A DNA stretch of 64,000 nt from Chloroflexota bacterium (GCA_005880615.1 VBID01000114.1:93324-157323), one strand, 5' to 3'. Shown: positions 9,685 through 57,077, numbered from the stretch's first letter. The notes: generated from the sequence alone by a model not told the origin. A program made the numbers and translations.

Positions 9685-9761
9685 GGGCGCATAGCTCAGT
9701 TGGTACGAGCGCTTCCATGACAAGGAAGAGGTCACAGGTTCGACTCCTGTTGCGCCCACCA
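9685..9761 (+). tRNA. tRNA-Val (anticodon GAC)
   Basis: Cloverleaf: acceptor GGGCGCA/TGCGCCC, D-arm GCTC..GAGC, anticodon stem CTTCC/GGAAG with loop ATGACAA (U33, A37, anticodon GAC), T-arm ACAGG TTCGACT CCTGT, encoded CCA. Confidence 0.85.
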
Positions 9762-12168: not shown

Positions 12169-12249
12169 TTGAGCGATCGCGACGTCCGAATCGGGCTAAA
12201 GTCTTGTAACGCGCGAGCCCGGCCGGGCTTACGCCGGTCCCATGCCATA

Positions 12250-12905: not shown

Positions 12906-13184
12906 TTGAAAGCCGCTCCACCCATCAAGACCTGCACGCGCGCCGGTTGCACCAACCTGGTGAAGAAATCGACGGCCCGCTACTGCAGCATTGGGTGCTG
13001 TGCGCAGGATCCGGTTCGGAAGGAGCGGCTCCGCCACCAGGCCCGGCGGGCACCCATCGTGCCGCTCTCCCATCAGTTGTCGCTCACGTTCAAGGCCAAC
13101 CCCGACCTGGAAGCCTGGCTGATGGAGCGGCTGCCCAGTGGGGAAGGGATCCCAGCCGGGCTGCAACGCCTGCGGGCAGGCTGA
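12906..13184 (+). CDS. Small Cys-rich protein: N-terminal zinc ribbon (C-x4-C...C-x3-CC) plus C-terminal ribbon-helix-helix-like segment
   Basis: TTG start 10 nt after AGGAGG. Cysteine pattern CTRAGC...YCSIGCC. SLTFKANPDLEAWLMERL resembles an RHH beta-strand plus helix. No assignable family. Confidence 0.5.
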   Translation: MKAAPPIKTCTRAGCTNLVKKSTARYCSIGCCAQDPVRKERLRHQARRAPIVPLSHQLSLTFKANPDLEAWLMERLPSGEGIPAGLQRLRAG

Positions 13185-13208
13185 TCTCTCTATAAGAGGC
13201 TAGGCTCT

Positions 13209-13404
13209 AAGCCCGGGTCCATCGATCGGACGACGCAGATCGGGATGCGGGGCGTGCCGAGCCGAAGGAGGCGACGAGCACGGGAGGGAGCGCATCCGTT
13301 GATGCGTGACCGACCGCGCACAGGAGACGACGCCCGGAGCCCGGCCTCGGGCTCAGGCCGCATCCGCGCCCAAGATGCTAGTTCGATTCGATGGACCCGG
13401 GCTT
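13209..13404 (-). mobile_element. MITE-like 196-bp element with 17-bp perfect TIRs (copy A, inverted relative to copy B)
   Basis: AAGCCCGGGTCCATCGA at 13209-13225 and its reverse complement at 13388-13404. The core is about 90% identical to 45480-45615 on the opposite strand. Confidence 0.5.
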
Positions 13405-13436
13405 ATAATCGGCGTCACCTCCGGAGGTGATGTCCG

Positions 13437-15176
13437 ATCGGCCAGGATCTCGAGACCCTTCGCCATTCCACCGCCCACGTAATGGCGGCCGCCGTGCTCG
13501 ACTTATTCCCCGGCACGGCCATCGGGATCGGGCCCGCGACCGACGAGGGATTCTATTACGACTTCGATTTCCGCAACGGCGGCCGCCCGGTGGAGGCCGA
13601 TCTGCGCCGGATCGAGGCGCGCATGCGCGAGATTGTTCGGGCGGCTCCCGCCTTCGTCAAGGAAGAAGTGCCGAAGCCGACGGCGGTGGAGCTCTTCCGC
13701 AAGCTCGACCAGCCGTACAAGGTCCAGCTGGTCGAGGAAAAGGTGACCGAACCGACGGCGCGGCTCTACCGGACCGGAGACTTCGTGGACCTCTGCCTGG
13801 GCCCGCACCTGCACGACGCCGGTCAGCTAGGGGCCTTTCGGCTACTCTCGCTGGCCGGCGCCTACTGGAAGGGCAGCGAGAAGAACCCGATGCTGACCCG
13901 GATTTACGGGACGGCCTTTCCCACCGAGGCCGAGCTGGAGGCACACCTCAAACGTCTGGAGGAGGCGGCCCAGCGGGACCATCGGAAGATCGGCAAGGAG
14001 CTCGACCTGTTCATGATCGACGACATGGCCGGCCGGGGCCTGCCGCTCTGGCTGCCCAAGGGGGCGACGGTGCGCCGGCTGTTGGAGGAGTACATCGTTA
14101 GGAAGGAATTGCGGGCAGGCTACCAGCACGTGCGCACCCCCGACATCGCCCGCCTCGACCTCTACAAGCAAAGCGGGCACTGGGCTCGCTACCGAGAGGC
14201 GATGTACCCACCCTCCAAGATCGAGGACGAGGAGTGGCAGCTGCGGCCCATGAACTGCCCCCACCACATCCGGATTTTCCAGCGCCGTGCCTACAGCTAT
14301 CGCGACCTGCCGGTGCGGCTGGCGGAGCTCGGCACCGTCTACCGCTACGAGAAGTCGGGCGAGGTGTCGGGGCTGATCCGGGTGCGCGCCTTCACCATCA
14401 ACGATGCCCACATCTTCTGCCGGCCGGACCAGGTGACCCAGGAGTTCGACGCCGTGGTCCGGCTGATTCTGGAGGTCTACGAAGCGCTGGGCGTCACCGA
14501 CTTCTACTTCCGCCTCTCGTTGCGTGACCAGACCAGTGACAAGTGGATGGGGGACCCGGCGGTGTGGGAGATGGCCCAGGAGGCGGCCCGCGCCGCACTC
14601 CGGGCGGGCGGGCACACGTTCGTGGAGGCCCCCGGGGAGGCCGCCTTCTACGGACCGAAGCTCGACGTTCAGATCAAGGACGCTATCGGCCGCGAGTTCA
14701 GCCTGTCCACCAACCAGATCGACTTCCTGATGCCCGAGGCCTTCGGCCTGGAGTACACCGATGCCGACCAGACCCAGAAGCGGCCGGTGATGATCCACCG
14801 CGCCCCCATCGGCTCCTTCGAACGCTTCATGGCCTACATGATCGAGCTCTATGCTGGGGCCTTTCCCCTCTGGCTGGCGCCGGTGCAGGTGGTCTTCATC
14901 CCTATCGCGGACCGCCACCTGGCCGGGGTGGAGGGTATCGCGGCGCGCTTTCGTGACCAGGACCTGCGGGTGGAGGTGGACGGCCGCGGCGAGCGGATGC
15001 AGGCCAAGATCCGGGACGCCCAGCTGCAGAAGGTGCCCTACATGGCGGTGGTGGGCGACCGCGAACTGGAAAGCGGCCAGGTCAACGTTCGGACCCGAGA
15101 CGGCGGCCAGGAAGCGCTGGCGGTCGAGGCGTTTCTTGACCGGCTGCGCCGCGAGAGCAAGGCGCCTAGCATATGA
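13437..15176 (+). CDS. thrS: Threonyl-tRNA synthetase lacking the N1 (TGS) domain
   Basis: The frame opens only at 13431, after TGA 13428-13430. The conserved editing motif HSTAH precedes the first ATG (13482). The only SD-adjacent start is ATC 13437 (GGAGG 13423-13427). Class II catalytic and anticodon-binding domains follow. Confidence 0.85.
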   Translation: MGQDLETLRHSTAHVMAAAVLDLFPGTAIGIGPATDEGFYYDFDFRNGGRPVEADLRRIEARMREIVRAAPAFVKEEVPKPTAVELFRKLDQPYKVQLVEEKVTEPTARLYRTGDFVDLCLGPHLHDAGQLGAFRLLSLAGAYWKGSEKNPMLTRIYGTAFPTEAELEAHLKRLEEAAQRDHRKIGKELDLFMIDDMAGRGLPLWLPKGATVRRLLEEYIVRKELRAGYQHVRTPDIARLDLYKQSGHWARYREAMYPPSKIEDEEWQLRPMNCPHHIRIFQRRAYSYRDLPVRLAELGTVYRYEKSGEVSGLIRVRAFTINDAHIFCRPDQVTQEFDAVVRLILEVYEALGVTDFYFRLSLRDQTSDKWMGDPAVWEMAQEAARAALRAGGHTFVEAPGEAAFYGPKLDVQIKDAIGREFSLSTNQIDFLMPEAFGLEYTDADQTQKRPVMIHRAPIGSFERFMAYMIELYAGAFPLWLAPVQVVFIPIADRHLAGVEGIAARFRDQDLRVEVDGRGERMQAKIRDAQLQKVPYMAVVGDRELESGQVNVRTRDGGQEALAVEAFLDRLRRESKAPSI

Positions 15177-15718
15177 CGATGGCATCTGTGGACCCGGTGA
15201 CGGCGCCGTCCGAATACCAGCGGCTCATGCTCTCGCTGGTCGGGGAGGACGATCCGGCGTCGGTCCAGGAGGAGACGCCCGGCGCGGTCAGGGGGATGAT
15301 CGCCACGGCAGCCGCCGACATTCGCCGCCGGCCGGCCGAGGGTGAGTGGTCGGTGCTCGAACTGGTCGGTCACCTCGCCGACGCCGAGCTGGTCATGGCC
15401 GCCCGGTACCGGTGGGTGCTGGCTCACGAGGAGCCGCCGATCGCCGCCTATGACCAGGACCGCTGGGTGGACCGGCTCCGGCACAACGACGACGATCCGC
15501 GCGACCTGCTGGCCCTCTTCGAGCCGTTGCGGCTGGCCAACCTGGCCCTCTGGCGGCGCACCCCCGGGCCGGCTCGGCAACGGGTTGGCCTCCATTCCGA
15601 GCGCGGCCGGGAGAGCCTCGACCTGATGTTCCGGATGATCGCCGGTCACGACCGCTTTCATCTGGCCCAGATGGACCGGACGCTGCGGGCCATCAGGGTC
15701 GGCGCCGGTTCAGCCTAG
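15173..15718 (+). CDS. DinB-family (DinB_2) protein
   Basis: WSVLELVGHLADAELVMAARYRWVL and C-terminal H-x3-H helix motifs. ATG overlaps the thrS stop (ATGA). Confidence 0.75.
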   Translation: MTMASVDPVTAPSEYQRLMLSLVGEDDPASVQEETPGAVRGMIATAAADIRRRPAEGEWSVLELVGHLADAELVMAARYRWVLAHEEPPIAAYDQDRWVDRLRHNDDDPRDLLALFEPLRLANLALWRRTPGPARQRVGLHSERGRESLDLMFRMIAGHDRFHLAQMDRTLRAIRVGAGSA

Positions 15719-17332: not shown

Positions 17333-17695
17333 ATGCCTCGTGTCAAGCGCGGCGTCCCAGCGCGGCGGCGCCACAAGAAGATCCTCAAACTGGCCAAGGG
17401 CTTCCGGCTGACGCACCGGACGCTGTTCCGCCCGGCAAATGAAGCCGTCCTCCATTCGCTTCAGTACGCCTTCCGTGACCGACGGGCGCGCAAGCGCGAC
17501 ATGCGCAAGCTCTGGATCACTCGCATCAACGCCGCCAGCCGGAGCCATGGGCTGCCCTACAACCAGTTCATGCACGGCCTGAAGGTGGCGGGGGTTACGA
17601 TCAACCGGAAGATGCTGGCCGACCTGGCGGTACGGGACGACCAGTCCTTCATCCAGCTGGTCGACCTGGCCAAAGGCTCCCCGGCAAAAAGCTGA
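17333..17695 (+). CDS. rplT: 50S ribosomal protein L20
   Basis: [25 protein letters not shown]. Confidence 0.9.
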
Positions 17696-22998: not shown

Positions 22999-24048
22999 AT
23001 GCCAGCGTCCACGGTGAACTCGCAGGTGGCGGTCGTGCAGCGACCTTCGGTACTACTCGATCGCAGCGCGACCATCGCCCGGGCCGTGGAGAGCATCGAT
23101 GAAGCGGCGTCGCACGGGGCGAGGCTGATCACCTTTCCCGAAACCTATATCCCCGGCTATCCCGAGTGGATCTGGCGGCTCCGGCCGGGCACGGACTCCC
23201 AGCTGACCGCCGAGATCCATGCCGAGCTGGTCCGCCAGGCGGTCGACCTGAGTACGGACCAGCTGGATCCGATCCTGGCCGCGGCTCGACGTCACAGCGC
23301 GACCGTCGTGGTCGGCCTCCAGGAGCGGGATGCCTCGTTCAGCCGTGGCACGCTGTACAACACGGTGGTGGTGGTCAGCGCCGAGGGCGAGATCGTGAAT
23401 CGCCACCGCAAGTTGATGCCCACTAACCCCGAACGGATGGTGTGGGGCGTCGGCGATGCCGCTGGGCTGAAGGTGCTGGACACCCCAGCCGGCCGGTTGG
23501 GTGGGCTCATCTGCTGGGAAAACTACATGCCGCTGGCCCGCTACGCGCTCTACGCGGAAGGCGTGGAAATTTATGTCGCTCCCACCTGGGACATGGGGCC
23601 GGCCTGGGTCTCATCGATGGTCCACATCGCCCGCGAGGGACGCTGCTGGGTGCTCAGCAACGGCACCTCCCTGCAGGGGCGGGATATCCCGGAGGGCTTC
23701 CCCCATCGAGCCGCCCTTTTTCCCGAACCCGAGGAGTGGATCAACGAGGGCGACTCGGTGATCGTGGCGCCCAACGGCACCATTGTCGCCGGACCGCTCA
23801 ACAAGAAGCACGGCATCCTGTACGCCGAGTGCGACCCGGCGCAAGCGGCCAGCGCGCATCGCACCTTGGACGTGGCCGGTCACTACTCCAGGCCAGACGT
23901 CTTCAGGCTCGAGGTGCGACGCGACGCAGCGGTCCCGGTGACCTTCCGTGACCAGCATCAGCCTCCGGGGGCGACCGCTTCCCAACCCGACGGCGGGTCG
24001 GCCCCGTTGCCAGCACCCAAGAAGACTCGGGAGATCCGGCTCACCTGA
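22999..24048 (+). CDS. Nitrilase/aliphatic amidase (CN hydrolase)
   Basis: ITFPETYIPGYP and CWENYMPLARYALYAEGVEIYVAPTWD (catalytic Cys context). Confidence 0.8.
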   Translation: MPASTVNSQVAVVQRPSVLLDRSATIARAVESIDEAASHGARLITFPETYIPGYPEWIWRLRPGTDSQLTAEIHAELVRQAVDLSTDQLDPILAAARRHSATVVVGLQERDASFSRGTLYNTVVVVSAEGEIVNRHRKLMPTNPERMVWGVGDAAGLKVLDTPAGRLGGLICWENYMPLARYALYAEGVEIYVAPTWDMGPAWVSSMVHIAREGRCWVLSNGTSLQGRDIPEGFPHRAALFPEPEEWINEGDSVIVAPNGTIVAGPLNKKHGILYAECDPAQAASAHRTLDVAGHYSRPDVFRLEVRRDAAVPVTFRDQHQPPGATASQPDGGSAPLPAPKKTREIRLT

Positions 24049-24061
24049 GCCCGAACCCGGG

Positions 24062-26605
24062 CTAGGGCGACGGCTGGGGCTGGAAGGGCGCCATAACCGT
24101 GAAGGTGGTCTGGCCGACCGCCGGGGCATTTCTCGGGTTGTAGTCGTAGGCCTGCACGATGAGGGTGTGAGGCCCCGGGATATGGATGGTCACCTGGTAG
24201 GGGCCTTGCCTGATGATGGCGATCGGCGTACTCCCGCCGTCGAGGAAGAAATCGACCTCCATGATCGCCTGATCGTCCTGCGGGACCGCCGTGATGGTGA
24301 TGCCCCCGTCCGGGAGCTGGGTCAGCATCAGCGGCTGGAGGGTGGGCGGGATGGTTTCCGTCATCACGCTGCAGGTTTGGGTCGGCATGGTCGGGTTGTC
24401 CTTGGCCTTGAGCTCGTCCGGGTACCCCGGCGGATAGACCACGAAGGTCTTGGTGGCGATCAGCTGGGTTGGTGTGTCCGGGGCGGCCAGCAGTCCGTCG
24501 GTCGTGCAGACGCGGACCACCTTGTACCAGTCGTCGTCCCGGTTGGGGGTCAGGCCGGCGACGAACCAGTCCGTCACGGTCTGTCCTGCCGATGAGCAGG
24601 CGGCCGTGGCGCGCAGCCCGCTCGCCTTGCACACCGTCACCTGCTTGAGGCCATCGGGTCGGGTCCAATCGTGCACCGGCTGGCTGGCCTCATAGGCATT
24701 GAAGATGTCGCGGAAGATCAGGCCCGGACCGAAGGCGCCCCAGACCACCCCGGCCGGCGTGGACAGGTCGGAGTTCTCGCCGGGCGGGCAGACGCCGGCG
24801 CACGTGTGTCCCATCCAGGTTCCGATGACGATGTCGGGGTTGTAGCCAATGAACCAGGAGTCGTGCCAGTTCTCGGTGGTGCCGGTCTTGGAGGAAAACG
24901 GGCGGGTGATGTGGAGCGGCGCGCCTACCGGCTTCAGCACGTCGTTCACCAGCCAGGCCACCTGCGGACTGAGCACGCGCACCCCGGGGGTCGGCTTCCA
25001 CTCGGTCAGGGTGTTGCCGTTGCTGTCGGTGACCTTCAGGATCACCACGGGGTCGTGACGCACCCCGCCGTTGGCCAGCACGGCGAACGCGTTGAAGTGT
25101 TCCAGGGGGATGACCTCGCTGGCGCCGATCGCCTGGCCGAGGCCGCGCTCCGGCGTCAGGTTCGAGGAAGTGAGGCCCATCATCCGCGCGGTCTGGAAGA
25201 CCCGAGCGTAGCCGAGCTGCTTGAGCAGCAAGATGGCCGGGATGTTGCGGGATTCCGACAGGGCCTGGCGGAGGGTGATGATGCCTTCGCTCTTGTGGTC
25301 CCAGTCCACGAAGGGCTGGCCGTTGATCTTGCCCTCCTCGTCGTTGGAGACGTTGGCCGGCCCCAACCCATTGGAAAAGGCCGTGGAGTAGACGTAGATC
25401 TTGAAGGACGAGCCGGGCTGGCGCCCGGGCCGGCTGGTAATGACGTTGAATTCCCCGCCGATGCCCCGGTCGTAGTAGTTGGCGCTGCCCACCATGGCCA
25501 GCACCTGCCCGGTGGCCGGGTCGATCACCTCGGCCGCCCCGTTGTTGACATTCTTGGCGCGCAGGTCGGGCCGGTTGACATTGCTGGCTACCGCCGCCTC
25601 GGCGATTTTCTGCAGCCCGGAATCCAGGGTGGTGGTCACCTGCAGGCCGCCGGCCCGCACCACCTCCGGACCGTACTGGCGGTCGAGCGTCTGCAGGATG
25701 TAGTCCACGAACCAGGGGGCCGTCACGTTCTGCTGCAGCGTGCCGTTCTTGTAGACCAGCTTCTCGCTCACGGCCGTGTCGTATTCTTGGGCGGTGATGT
25801 GGTGGTCGCGCAGCATGGCCCGCAGCACGATGAGCTGGCGGTTGCGGGCGGCGTCGCCGGTCTGCGGGTCGAAGGGGTCGAAGTCGGAGGGGGCGTTCGG
25901 GATGCCCGCCAGCAGGGCGGCCTCGGCGATGTCCAGGTCTTTGGCGGACTTGGCGAAGTAGGTCTGGGCGGCGGCCTCGGCGCCGTACGCCTCATGGCCG
26001 TAATAGATCTCGTTCAGGTAGAGAGTCAGGATCTCGGTCTTGGTGTAGCGGCGCTCGATGTCGAGGGCCAGCACGGCCTCCTTGATCTTGCGCTCGACGC
26101 TGCGCTCATTGGTGAGTAGGGTCGCCTTGACCAGCTGCTGGGTGATGGTGCTGCCACCCTGGGCGGCCCGCACGTGGGTGATGTCGGCCAGCGCTGCCCC
26201 AATGACCCGGCGGAAGTCGATGCCGTGATGGGTGTAGAAGGTGCGGTCCTCCAGCGAGACCGTCGCCTGCACCAGGTGGGGCGAGATCGCACTCAGCGGG
26301 ACCACGGTCCGGATCCCCTCCGAGGTGTGCTTGACGTAGAGCAGCACCCCATTGCGGTCGTAGATCTTGGTCGACTGGGCCAGCTCGCGCACCCGCAACG
26401 AGTTGGTGTCCGGGAGATCGCGAGTGTACGTCTGGTACTTATCGAAGGCCTCGGCCCCCCCGCCCAGGCTCATGGTGAAGAGCACGGTCAGGGTGACGAC
26501 CGCGAACTTCGCCAGCATGCCGCGCCCATTGCGGCGGCGTCGCATGCGGGTGACGGTGAGGACTCGCAGGGCGGCCCGGCGGGCCAGGGCGTGTCTACTC
26601 AGCAT
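24062..26605 (-). CDS. Class A penicillin-binding protein (glycosyltransferase GT51 plus transpeptidase) with C-terminal Ig-like extension
   Basis: GT51 motifs (RVIGAALADITHVRAAQGGSTITQQLVK), transpeptidase SSFK, KSG/KTG box, and about 170 aa extra at the C-terminus. Start at ATG 26605 or 26659. Confidence 0.85.
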   Translation of the reverse strand: MLSRHALARRAALRVLTVTRMRRRRNGRGMLAKFAVVTLTVLFTMSLGGGAEAFDKYQTYTRDLPDTNSLRVRELAQSTKIYDRNGVLLYVKHTSEGIRTVVPLSAISPHLVQATVSLEDRTFYTHHGIDFRRVIGAALADITHVRAAQGGSTITQQLVKATLLTNERSVERKIKEAVLALDIERRYTKTEILTLYLNEIYYGHEAYGAEAAAQTYFAKSAKDLDIAEAALLAGIPNAPSDFDPFDPQTGDAARNRQLIVLRAMLRDHHITAQEYDTAVSEKLVYKNGTLQQNVTAPWFVDYILQTLDRQYGPEVVRAGGLQVTTTLDSGLQKIAEAAVASNVNRPDLRAKNVNNGAAEVIDPATGQVLAMVGSANYYDRGIGGEFNVITSRPGRQPGSSFKIYVYSTAFSNGLGPANVSNDEEGKINGQPFVDWDHKSEGIITLRQALSESRNIPAILLLKQLGYARVFQTARMMGLTSSNLTPERGLGQAIGASEVIPLEHFNAFAVLANGGVRHDPVVILKVTDSNGNTLTEWKPTPGVRVLSPQVAWLVNDVLKPVGAPLHITRPFSSKTGTTENWHDSWFIGYNPDIVIGTWMGHTCAGVCPPGENSDLSTPAGVVWGAFGPGLIFRDIFNAYEASQPVHDWTRPDGLKQVTVCKASGLRATAACSSAGQTVTDWFVAGLTPNRDDDWYKVVRVCTTDGLLAAPDTPTQLIATKTFVVYPPGYPDELKAKDNPTMPTQTCSVMTETIPPTLQPLMLTQLPDGGITITAVPQDDQAIMEVDFFLDGGSTPIAIIRQGPYQVTIHIPGPHTLIVQAYDYNPRNAPAVGQTTFTVMAPFQPQPSP

Positions 26606-44575: not shown

Positions 44576-45450
44576 ACCCGGTCGCGGGCGATGGCCGGGC
44601 GCGCCGGTTCTGGGCCCGCGGCGCCGCCGCCTGTGCTGCCGCCGGGGTGAACGTGAACGTCGTCTGGACCACCCGGCGCGGCGCCGCCGCCGAGGCCGCG
44701 GCCACCGCCAACGGGCAAACCGTGATCGCGGTGGGCGGCGATGGCACCATCCACGAGGTGGTGAACGGATTGCTGCGTCGGCCGGGAACGGCGCGGCCCC
44801 GTTTCGGAGCCCTGCCCGCCGGAACGGGCGGCGACTTCTGCCGCAGCCTGCCCGGACCGCGCGACCCGGCCCTGATCCCGGGGTGGCTCCAGGCGTCCCG
44901 GTTCAAAACCATCGACGCGGCGCGCGCCGCCACCTCCAACGGCCGGCGATTCTTCATCAACGCGGCCGATGCCGGCATCGGGGCCCGCATCGCCCGCCGG
45001 GCGGTCGCTGCCCCGGCGCTGCTGGGCGGGACCGCTCGGTACCTTGGCGCCGCCGCCTGGAGCCTCATGGTGCACCGAAACGTGGCGGTGCGCCTCCGCC
45101 TCGACGACGGGCCGACCGAGCGCCTCCGAGTCTGGACCATCGTGGTGGCCAACGGCGGCTATGCCGGCAGTGGCATGTGGCTGGCGCCCGACGCCAGGCT
45201 GGATGACGGGTGGCTGGATGTGGTGATCATCGGCGACATCGGGCGGCCACTGGCTATCCGCAGCCTCCCGCTGCTGTACCAGGGAAAACATGGACGGCTG
45301 GCGCAGGTGCGCTTCGCCCGGGCCCGCCGGGTGGAGATTGAGGCCGAGACCCCCGCCCAGGTCCAGGCCGATGGCGAGCTGGTGGGGGAGACGCCCGCCG
45401 TCTTCGAGGTGATACCGGGAGCCCTGGACGTCCTCTCGTGGGACGGCTGA
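44569..45450 (+). CDS. DAGK_cat-family lipid kinase (YegS/diacylglycerol kinase-like)
   Basis: The conserved N-terminus LVIVNPVAGDGRARRF and the GGDGT motif are in one frame, which has no ATG/GTG/TTG for more than 200 nt upstream of GTG 44647. ATC 44569 is the candidate start, overlapping the ribF stop. Confidence 0.7.
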   Translation: MVNPVAGDGRARRFWARGAAACAAAGVNVNVVWTTRRGAAAEAAATANGQTVIAVGGDGTIHEVVNGLLRRPGTARPRFGALPAGTGGDFCRSLPGPRDPALIPGWLQASRFKTIDAARAATSNGRRFFINAADAGIGARIARRAVAAPALLGGTARYLGAAAWSLMVHRNVAVRLRLDDGPTERLRVWTIVVANGGYAGSGMWLAPDARLDDGWLDVVIIGDIGRPLAIRSLPLLYQGKHGRLAQVRFARARRVEIEAETPAQVQADGELVGETPAVFEVIPGALDVLSWDG

Positions 45451-45638
45451 GCCCGAACCCACAGAAACGAACTTGCATCTCGGATGCGGCCTGAGCCCGA
45501 GGCCGGGCTCCGAGCGTCGTCTCCTGTGCGCGCTCGGTCACGCATCGACGGATGCGCTCCCTCGCCTGCTCGTCGCCTCCTTCGGCTCGGCGCGCCCCGC
45601 ATCTCAATCTGCTTCGTCCGCTCGGTGGATCCGGGCTG
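45450..45638 (+). mobile_element. MITE-like element copy B (about 190 bp, imperfect TIRs)
   Basis: It begins at the DAGK stop codon. The core is about 90% identical to the reverse complement of 13227-13387. Termini AGCCCGAACCCACAG ... CGGTGGATCCGGGCTGG are inverted. Internal direct repeats CGTCGTCTCC and CGTCGCCTCC. Central palindrome CGCATCGACGGATGCG. Confidence 0.5.
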
Positions 45639-45705
45639 GCCAAACAGCTGTTCCCTGTTTTCGGCTGACGGCAAGGACTACCATCGGGTCGAAAAGGAGG
45701 TAACG

Positions 45706-46062
45706 GCCATGGGCAAGTACGCAGTCATGGGCGGCTACACGGCGGAGACCTGGGCCCGCTTCGTTCAGAATCCGGGGGACCGGGCCGCCGCGGTGCGGAA
45801 AGCCGCGGAGAGCGTGGGGGCGAAGCTCGACAGCATTTACTGGACGTTCGGCGACGACGACTATCTGGTGATCGTGGACGCGCCGGATGATGTCACCGCG
45901 GCGGCCGTTTCGGTCGCCGTCGGAAGCTCCGGCGCCCTTCGGAACCTGCGGACCATCAAGTTGATTACGGCCGACGAGCTGCAGAAGGTGCTGGCCAAAG
46001 CCAAGACCGCGGCCGGCGCGTACGTTCCACCTGGGGCCAGGGAGCCCGTCGCCACCCGCTGA
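45706..46062 (+). CDS. GYD-domain protein
   Basis: ATG after AAAAGGAGGT. MGKYAVMGGYTAETWARFVQNP...YWTFGDDDYLVIVDAPDD matches the GYD family. Confidence 0.7.
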   Translation, partial: AMGKYAVMGGYTAETWARFVQNPGDRAAAVRKAAESVGAKLDSIYWTFGDDDYLVIVDAPDDVTAAAVSVAVGSSGALRNLRTIKLITADELQKVLAKAKTAAGAYVPPGAREPVATR

Positions 46063-56990: not shown

Positions 56991-57077
56991 ACCTTAGCCC
57001 GGATCCGGGCTTAAGTTTCGGCAGATCGAGGCGGCGTCGGGCCATGAGCCGCGCCGCCTCTGGCTCCAAAATTCGCT

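Follow-up and report, generated by a model that had tools for sequence, protein, structure and literature searches.

Several kinds of short intergenic repeat come close to the element described here. Bacterial MITEs such as Correia/NEMIS of Neisseria, Nezha of cyanobacteria and MITEAba12 are small, non-coding and bounded by terminal inverted repeats, and they occur as many dispersed intergenic copies with insertion polymorphism between strains, nesting and deletion derivatives. The ERIC/IRU repeats of enterobacteria and the bcr1-type repeats of the Bacillus cereus group are imperfect palindromes of 100-200 nt whose folds are backed by compensatory changes and whose size variants come from internal insertions or deletions at fixed points; for ERIC and bcr1 an RNA role by co-transcription has been proposed. 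IS630 prefers a CTAG target and duplicates TA, and IS200/IS605 shows an orientation bias relative to replication. REP/BIME-RAYT repeats and the IS200/IS605-derived PATEs are extragenic hairpin repeats that make no target duplication and show strand-specific structure and orientation bias; REPs are 20-40 nt long and bear a GTAG or CGTC tag (PMC3733652). For CSP1-4, a high density of transposases and long spacers have been noted (PMC13212565).

The repeat analysed here lies directly upstream of thrS in a 64,000-nt stretch of Chloroflexota DNA, hereafter the window. A sequence-only reading had described it as a non-coding, TIR-flanked, multi-copy mobile repeat of MITE-like type, and that description has held up: related genomes yielded about 45 copies as well as empty sites, and the repeat had no Rfam match. 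We consider it probable that this copy (copy 1) is a member of an undescribed, non-coding, self-complementary "foldback", MITE-like mobile family of soil Chloroflexota. The family is new, the general kind (MITE-like or foldback intergenic repeats) is known, and the literature on Chloroflexota/Limnocylindria gave no described repeat of this kind. The likeness to bacterial MITEs extends to all the features listed above, with units here of 110-360 nt, but this family has no demonstrable target-site duplication of fixed length, as classical DDE-type MITEs do, and no identified parent insertion sequence, its hairpin takes in the whole element and not just the ends, and it shows a strong strand asymmetry of pairing together with a uniform orientation relative to genes. 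Palindrome size, a compensated fold and size variants made by internal insertion or deletion recall the ERIC/IRU and bcr1-type repeats, from which the family differs in phylum and in having no sequence similarity to them.

Units, variants and distribution of the family

All the parts that had been named for copy 1, namely the 17-bp perfect terminal inverted repeats, the internal motifs, the central hairpin, TATAAT, GGAGG and TTCGAT (13382-13387), were found at their given positions (Table 1; loci fetched from related genomes carry L numbers). The terminal repeat reaches 18 bp when T13208/A13405 is included; its left arm belongs to the outer portion of helix 1, a helix that covaries among copies. 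The sequence-only reading had also noted the core, at about 90% identity, at 45480-45615; a complete element is indeed present there (copy 2), with its own diverged terminal repeats beyond the shared core, although the identity is slightly lower than had been given, at 86-87% (a BLAST alignment of 194 nt gave 87%, a global one 169/196). The window contains exactly two matches to a 25-mer of the core, at 13256-13280 (+) and 45567-45591 (-), and 0 of 100 shuffles matched it.

Table 1. Features of the repeat family in the window and allelic states of the thrS site
Feature	Position	Strand	Remark
Solo hairpin AGCCCGGCCGGGCT	12216-12229	.	probably a scar left by a family member
Copy 1 of the repeat (196-nt subtype)	13209-13404	+	stop of a conserved 92-aa ORF (13184) on the left, thrS -10-like box on the right
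Left terminal inverted repeat AAGCCCGGGTCCATCGA	13209-13225	+	17 nt, perfect
Copy 1 interior, 162 nt	13226-13387	+	reverse-complemented relative to L066/L067
GGATGCGG	13243-13250	+	5' side of helix 3; partner 13358-13365
GGAGGCGACG, first direct-repeat motif	13267-13276	+	opposite the second motif across the central internal loop
Apical hairpin GCGCATCC-GTTG-ATGCGT	13290-13307	+	stem beneath with covarying pairs
GGAGACGACG, second direct-repeat motif	13323-13332	+	other arm of the hairpin
Mini-hairpin AGCCCGGCCTCGGGCT	13338-13353	+	apparently both ends of an inner element joined together
CCGCATCC	13358-13365	+	3' side of helix 3
Right terminal inverted repeat	13388-13404	+	exact reverse complement of AAGCCCGGGTCCATCGA; ends on the first T of TATAAT
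TATAAT, thrS -10-like box	13404-13409	+	already in element-free alleles
GGAGG Shine-Dalgarno	13423-13427	+	9 nt ahead of the in-frame ATC at 13437
thrS, without TGS domain	13437-15176	+	likely start ATC 13437; gene callers take ATG 13482
Empty site	15711-15714	.	between convergent DinB-like and peptidase S51 genes; 130-133-nt derivative in L035/L063
Empty site, rplT-pheS spacer	17692-17695	.	L035, L063: ~136-nt insert with ~120-nt deletion derivative
Solo hairpin AGCCCGAACCCGGGCT	24048-24063	.	3' end of transglycosylase gene; full 180-nt copy at the equivalent place in L061
Copy 2 of the repeat (196-nt subtype, 6-nt deletion)	45449-45638	-	flanked by YegS-like kinase gene and GYD gene
Solo hairpin AGCCCGGATCCGGGCT	56996-57011	.	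equals first 10 + last 6 nt of the family consensus
Empty site	57061-57064	.	362-nt nested composite in L006 (~96% identical)
Family ends, degenerate form			AGCCCGGATC...GATYCGGGCT
thrS site, empty			L075, L076, L077, L079, L081, L083, L084, L086, L087, L061
thrS site, 196-nt element			window, L066, L067
thrS site, nested composite			L063, L082, L085
thrS site, 128-nt derivative			L060, L064, L069, L070

Alignment of 25-33 full copies gave a basic unit of 179-181 nt with the ends AGCCCGG...CCGGGCT, which are kept in all copies. Both window copies, as well as L010 and L031, belong to a 196-nt subtype in which an extra hairpin, GAGCCCGGCCTCGGGCTC, is added to the basic unit. Composites of ~360 nt consist of a full unit nested within another and are of two kinds, the inner unit sitting either in the GAAGGA loop or at the position of the extra hairpin of the 196-nt subtype. 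At the thrS locus L063 and L082 retain the full composite, with a complete nested copy exactly where copy 1 has its mini-hairpin; from this comparison the extra hairpin is read as the joined termini of an inner unit, and the window copies as nested composites in which that unit has collapsed. Other members are deletion derivatives of 110-135 nt and solo hairpins of 16-21 nt in which both termini are joined. The variants are best explained as derived from the ~180-nt unit either by nesting in the loop of another unit (~360 nt) or by internal deletion, which can run down to the solo hairpin. The window contains 7 instances of the pattern AGCCCG-N(0-30)-CGGGCT, where 0.9 are expected; intergenic GC-rich solo hairpins are probably scars of former copies, and such scars may be common genome-wide.

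From the shortest units (110 nt) to the longest (360 nt), the ORFs that cross them are not conserved between subtypes and no unit has conserved coding capacity, which agrees with the earlier view that the repeat encodes no protein. A peptide-coding reading, in which GGAGG would be followed by a GTG start, was rejected, as the GTG is missing in both window copies and many others. A 192-aa ORF at 45484-46062 (+) starts inside copy 2 and reads into the GYD gene, the true start of which is at about 45706, and an exact database look-up of the 118-aa GYD protein returned no record; ORF calls of this sort may explain both the missing record and annotated Arg-rich pseudo-peptides. The family accounts for spurious Arg-rich ORF calls in these MAGs, and also for long intergenic spacers in soil CSP1-4/Limnocylindria genomes.

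When one genome per species was scanned with a core 20-mer, ~40 contigs were found in two soil MAGs, 'Ca. Limnocylindria' SMAG_U11626 and the 'Ca. Eisenbacteria'-labelled SMAG_U11657, to which the window DNA is ~96% and ~91% identical, respectively; the remaining matches were scattered singles, mostly without further similarity to the element, and one of them (L013) is a partial copy. The ThrRS encoded in the window is 100% identical to a protein recorded as 'MAG: Chloroflexi bacterium'. BLAST and nhmmer yielded ~45 units in related genomes, and the copy-number comparison by BLASTN showed a dispersed multi-copy family there. No match was obtained when the element was compared by blastn with the plasmids in PLSDB. 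As far as sampled, the family is confined to a soil Chloroflexota lineage (Limnocylindria and CSP1-4-like MAGs). SMAG_U11657 (GCA_035635515.1, DASQAY01; contigs L009, L011, L019-L021, L025, L028, L032, L037, L041, L052, L059 and L060) has 98% ThrRS identity and synteny with the Chloroflexota window, so that its NCBI label 'Candidatus Eisenbacteria bacterium' looks wrong, or these contigs look mis-binned. In a Dormibacterota-labelled MAG (DASUVY01), L013 1700-1860 contains the core only, 88% identical over 83 nt and without terminal arms; coxS-like and coxL-like genes lie on either side and the upstream ORF ends inside this partial copy. It hints at an old degraded copy, or at a core that is independent of the arms.

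Filled, empty and inverted alleles at thrS

Twenty-five loci were fetched for the thrS site, of which one duplicate, one without a match at the site and three with contig ends too close were dropped, so that the comparison covers the remaining 20 loci and the window. The site is empty in some of them and in others contains the 196-nt element, a nested composite or a 128-nt derivative, and one and the same ThrRS allele (P0015) accompanies an empty site in some assemblies and an occupied one in others. L072, L073 and L074 have no element at the copy-2 site; these three alleles came from a search for GYD homologues in which all matches were at most 91% identical. At three further positions the window is itself empty and relatives ~96% identical to it are filled, and at 15711-15714 solo hairpins of 21 nt and 17 nt are present in L064 and L061, respectively. 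Copies are thus gained and lost at exact positions among 91-99%-identical genomes, although part of this presence and absence could be homologous allele exchange between strains instead of fresh transposition or excision. The family can serve as a strain-level marker, since even >96%-identical genomes differ by gain, loss, truncation and flipping of copies.

The sequence-only reading had also suggested that the edge of the element supplies TATAAT and, with TTCGAT as the -35, the promoter of thrS. The empty alleles argue against this. They read ...GCTCTCTATAATCGGCGTCACC in nine close relatives and ...CCTCTATAATCGG in L061 and thus already have TATAAT, and the block TATAATCGGCGTCACCT..GGAGG is conserved to ~80% genome identity, which makes the -10-like box and the conserved leader older than the insertion. 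By this comparison copy 1 inserted flush against the existing thrS TATAAT, to which it adds at most the first T. The pair of TTCGAT and TATAAT fails a sigma-70 consensus scan; moreover, relatives have TCCGAT or deleted sequence at the proposed -35 position, which lies in the portion that is inverted, deleted or replaced among close relatives. A consensus scan of the element detected no sigma-70-like promoter and no intrinsic terminator. We infer that the element is selfish or neutral toward thrS and not a promoter donor, and a tempting yet wrong promoter annotation is thereby removed.

Compared with L066 (JGI 3300026328; 99.6% identity over 21.7 kb) and L067 (ENA ERZ27315233; 99.4% over 12.1 kb), the interior of copy 1 is identical at 161/162 positions as the reverse complement and at 109/178 in the forward direction. 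In both loci the element occupies the site that it has in the window and the 17-18-bp terminal repeats agree, and the 100-nt flanks of L066 are identical to those of the window on both sides. Since every other occupied thrS allele is in the orientation of L066, the state in the window is the derived one, and it is most simply explained by a flip between the 18-bp perfect terminal repeats. An inverted state in a single assembly could be a misassembly, although usual final k-mers are longer than 18 bp, so that a repeat of this length should not confuse an assembler. A metagenome scan with the right TIR and its flank returned four contigs. One of these was known before, two have the deleted type, and the fourth is a chance match in a thioredoxin-reductase-like gene.

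These two orientations raise the question of an inverton, in which a site-specific invertase would flip the segment between the 18-bp repeats and phase-vary thrS. As in known invertons, there is a ~160-bp segment between 18-bp inverted repeats, inverted at one locus between 99.4-99.6%-identical assemblies with identical flanks and repeats, and it adjoins a -10 box with the -35 position just inside the flipped part. We nevertheless regard this explanation as extremely unlikely. The flipped state is rare (1 of ~11 occupied assemblies), many strains are without any element, and the quasi-palindromic arms leave the -35 region nearly unchanged by a flip (TTCGAT versus TCCGAT, neither of which resembles TTGACA). 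No promoter was found inside the segment and no invertase gene nearby, and the Pfam-annotated genes up to 10 kb on either side of thrS include no recombinase. The majority of copies in the family do not lie upstream of a gene, and a dispersed, mobile and highly similar family differs from a locus-specific switch.

As for thrS itself, translation appears from the sequence to start at ATC 13437, which is in frame and preceded by an in-frame TGA at 13428. This start is required for the conserved N-terminus (M/I)GQDLETLRHSTAHV, which bears the His motif of the editing domain. ATC likewise appears to be the start in L060 (750-770), L063, L064 and L066, and ATG stands there in L061 and L062; the NCBI start annotation in the DASQAY MAG (P0013) is ATC, while most gene calls take ATG 13482, giving 564 aa. 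The thrS cluster contains infC, the product of which discriminates against non-canonical starts, and a non-canonical thrS start with infC in the same cluster might be regulatory.

Hairpin fold, strand asymmetry and orientation

We call the strand that reads 5'-AAGCCCGG...GGATGCGGGG... canonical. The ~180-nt unit is predicted to form, over its full length, a long imperfect hairpin. For copy 1 the canonical strand gave a single long hairpin with an RNA minimum free energy of -124.1 kcal/mol (z = -9.2) and for copy 2 the value was -109.1 kcal/mol (z = -4.9); the complementary strands folded less well, at -111.5 and -90.6 kcal/mol, respectively, and DNA parameters ranked the strands in the same way (-65.8 versus -60.1 kcal/mol). 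In the consensus hairpin of 33 copies, which has 62 pairs, 97.4% of the cells are paired. Changes on both sides were found in 17 pairs, against 10.1 +/- 1.3 in shuffles (0 of 500 reached 17) and at most 5 in slid controls. They fall mostly in the terminal stem (10/22 pairs) and in the apical stem, helix 6 (double changes in 5/14 pairs), where the covarying pairs beneath the apical hairpin have two tandem G·A/A·G mismatches between them. The covariation signal comes from outside the middle of the rod, which does not vary; this middle part bears on its opposite arms the two direct-repeat motifs GGAG(G/A)CGACG, which are nearly invariant throughout the family.

Among the non-Watson-Crick cells, G·U accounts for 158 cells at 24 positions and A·C for 15 cells at 8 positions (sign test, p = 0.007). 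Because a G·U pair becomes an A·C mismatch on the complement, this difference marks one strand as the one that needs to fold. The hairpin has thus been kept through compensatory substitutions with a strong asymmetry of G·U over A·C. The covariation stems in part from shared subfamily ancestry, and gene conversion from arm to arm could create "compensatory" changes without structural selection. A mutational bias toward G·U over A·C was also considered and rejected by reasoning from the direction of deamination, since deamination on the exposed sense (lagging-template) strand predicts the opposite asymmetry in antisense copies.

Genes around the copies were called from codon-position GC content and the Pfam-annotated gene lists of the loci. 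At 10 of 10 unique loci between co-directional genes, i.e., the thrS site (in its common state), the copy-2 site, 57061, 17692, the L075 site, L010, L011, L012, L025 and L058, the canonical strand is antisense to the genes (two-sided binomial p 0.002); at the copy-2 site this holds for the YegS-like kinase and GYD genes alike. Four further copies with one callable neighbour are antisense too, and the sole sense-oriented copy is copy 1 of this window. Read-through transcripts will therefore almost never contain the well-folding strand, which favours a role of single-stranded DNA, in transposition or replication, over a role of RNA. Three candidate causes of the bias may be named: selection against canonical RNA in operons, where it would bring a stronger hairpin and two Shine-Dalgarno-like motifs; insertion coupled to one strand; and orientation-dependent instability of the hairpin at the replication fork.

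The strand data bear directly on the view that the copies are structured ncRNA genes or cis-acting RNA elements (an sRNA, an mRNA stabiliser or a processing site) that merely resemble a transposon. Such an RNA would fit the strong fold (z = -9.2 and -7.8), the 17 covarying pairs, the G·U enrichment, the two tandem G·A motifs, and the two invariant GGAG(G/A)CGACG motifs on opposite sides of an internal loop. Its well-folding strand is, however, antisense to the neighbours at 10/10 loci, which makes a co-transcribed RNA role in the manner of ERIC or bcr1 unlikely as well, and the consensus scan showed no promoter-like or terminator-like signal. The copies are also dispensable, being absent from near-identical strains, and they nest, delete and decay to scars. 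Nor is there a known RNA family to which they belong: with the Rfam covariance models only a tRNA in the window reached the gathering score (9685-9758, +, 68.4 bits; a tRNA gene unrelated to the repeat), and a permissive search (E <= 10) of 13100-13500, which included T-box and thrS leaders, gave nothing better than E = 1.3. We therefore judge an RNA gene or RNA element very unlikely and keep to a mobile element as the preferred reading.

Flanks, target site and candidate enzymes

As a mobile element without coding capacity, the family would be propagated in trans by an enzyme encoded elsewhere. The flanks of 28 unique loci gave the consensus Y-T-A | element | N-A-G, with TA on the left at 9/28 (p ~1e-10) and on the right at 8/28 (p ~4e-9) against a background of 1.4%. 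TA is thus enriched on each flank, and the outer consensus, Y-TA ... TA/NA-G, recalls CTAG, as in MITEs of the IS630/Tc1-mariner type. In such a case a DDE transposase would cut the element out and paste it into TA, preferably within CTAG, TA would be duplicated, and untidy empty sites would be excision footprints. Copy 1 and site 15712 have TA at both flanks, and the empty allele of L061, CCTC-TA-TAAT, compared with the filled thrS site fits a TA duplication exactly.

The remaining sites agree less well with this mechanism. TA stands on both flanks at 1 of the 28 tabulated loci, with site 15712 added by eye, and it is far less conserved than the ends of the element; a weakly conserved 3-nt extension of the inverted repeat would explain the flank pattern just as well. 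Five comparisons of filled with empty alleles gave junctions that were flush or off by 1-3 nt. Copy 2, set against its empty allele, is a flush insertion without TA. Other empty alleles (GCTCT-C-TATAAT, GGTT-C-AGCC and CCTCT-GG-CTCC) differ by 1-3 nt from the TA prediction. The empty alleles of L083, L075, the window and L072 do not fit a TA duplication, and the empty sites of close relatives give no simple TA target. Furthermore, neither the asymmetry of G·U over A·C nor the orientation bias is expected of double-strand cut-and-paste, and no IS630-like gene was found in the fetched loci. An IS630/Tc1-type MITE is thus a possible but rather doubtful explanation.

Absence of a consistent duplication, near-precise empty alleles, strand-asymmetric conservation of the hairpin and the shared gene-relative orientation at 10/10 loci between co-directional genes would be accommodated if the folded single strand were moved by an enzyme outside the DDE class, such as an HUH/Y1 transposase of the IS200/IS605-RAYT kind, with insertion or survival tied to the replication or transcription strand. 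The family shares with REP/BIME-RAYT repeats and PATEs the extragenic hairpins, the strand-specific structure, the orientation bias and the lack of a consistent target duplication. IS200/IS605 and REP elements, however, have subterminal hairpins without long terminal inverted repeats spanning the element; PATEs have distinct left and right subterminal hairpins and insert 3' of a fixed tetra- or pentanucleotide, whereas the arms here are mutually complementary over ~80 nt. A unit of ~180 nt with AGCCC ends is also unlike a REP/BIME. The lack of a consistent duplication is compatible with a PATE, but long terminal inverted repeats are present and a search of the element flanks for a fixed tetranucleotide found none, so that a conserved tetra- or pentanucleotide target is not established. 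In addition, the better-folding strand lies on the template side, the opposite of a simple lagging-strand-template expectation if genes follow replication, and no Y1 transposase gene was seen near any copy. On balance we think an HUH/Y1 enzyme unlikely.

More generally, the inferred enzyme would act on, or require, the folded single strand of one polarity, single-stranded DNA being likelier than RNA. On this basis we put forward, tentatively and as an improbable rather than a favoured proposal, a foldback element that is copied or moved by a non-DDE enzyme as a folded single strand of fixed polarity, without target duplication, that can flip in place, and whose insertion or survival is coupled to the strand of transcription or replication; such coupling would explain the 10/10 antisense copies. 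If true, single-strand mobility would be a mode not described for bacterial TIR-bearing MITEs, and if the pairing asymmetry and the orientation do reflect transposition, the family would offer a tractable case of single-strand, duplication-free mobility of a TIR-bearing element in an uncultured phylum-level lineage.

Profile HMMs of both ends, run over the ~0.8 Mb of fetched loci, a biased sample, found no end pair more than ~410 nt apart that could mark an autonomous partner, and no cognate transposase was found in these loci. A 408-aa ORF (L072 4256-5482, -), inserted between the GYD and HAD genes and missing from the window and from L074, was examined as a candidate transposase and rejected; it has no Pfam or other family match and no element ends around it.

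At site 17692-17695 (L035 5028-5163, L063 14344-14481) one end of the insert bears 9-10 additional nt (TCCGACTCTA) and the opposite end AAGC, with a 4-nt repeat (TCAG/CTGA) flanking the whole. The 10-mer TCCGACTCTA resembles the sequence adjoining the thrS site in L061 (TCCGACCTCTA), a likeness that would point to neighbouring DNA being carried along when the element moves.
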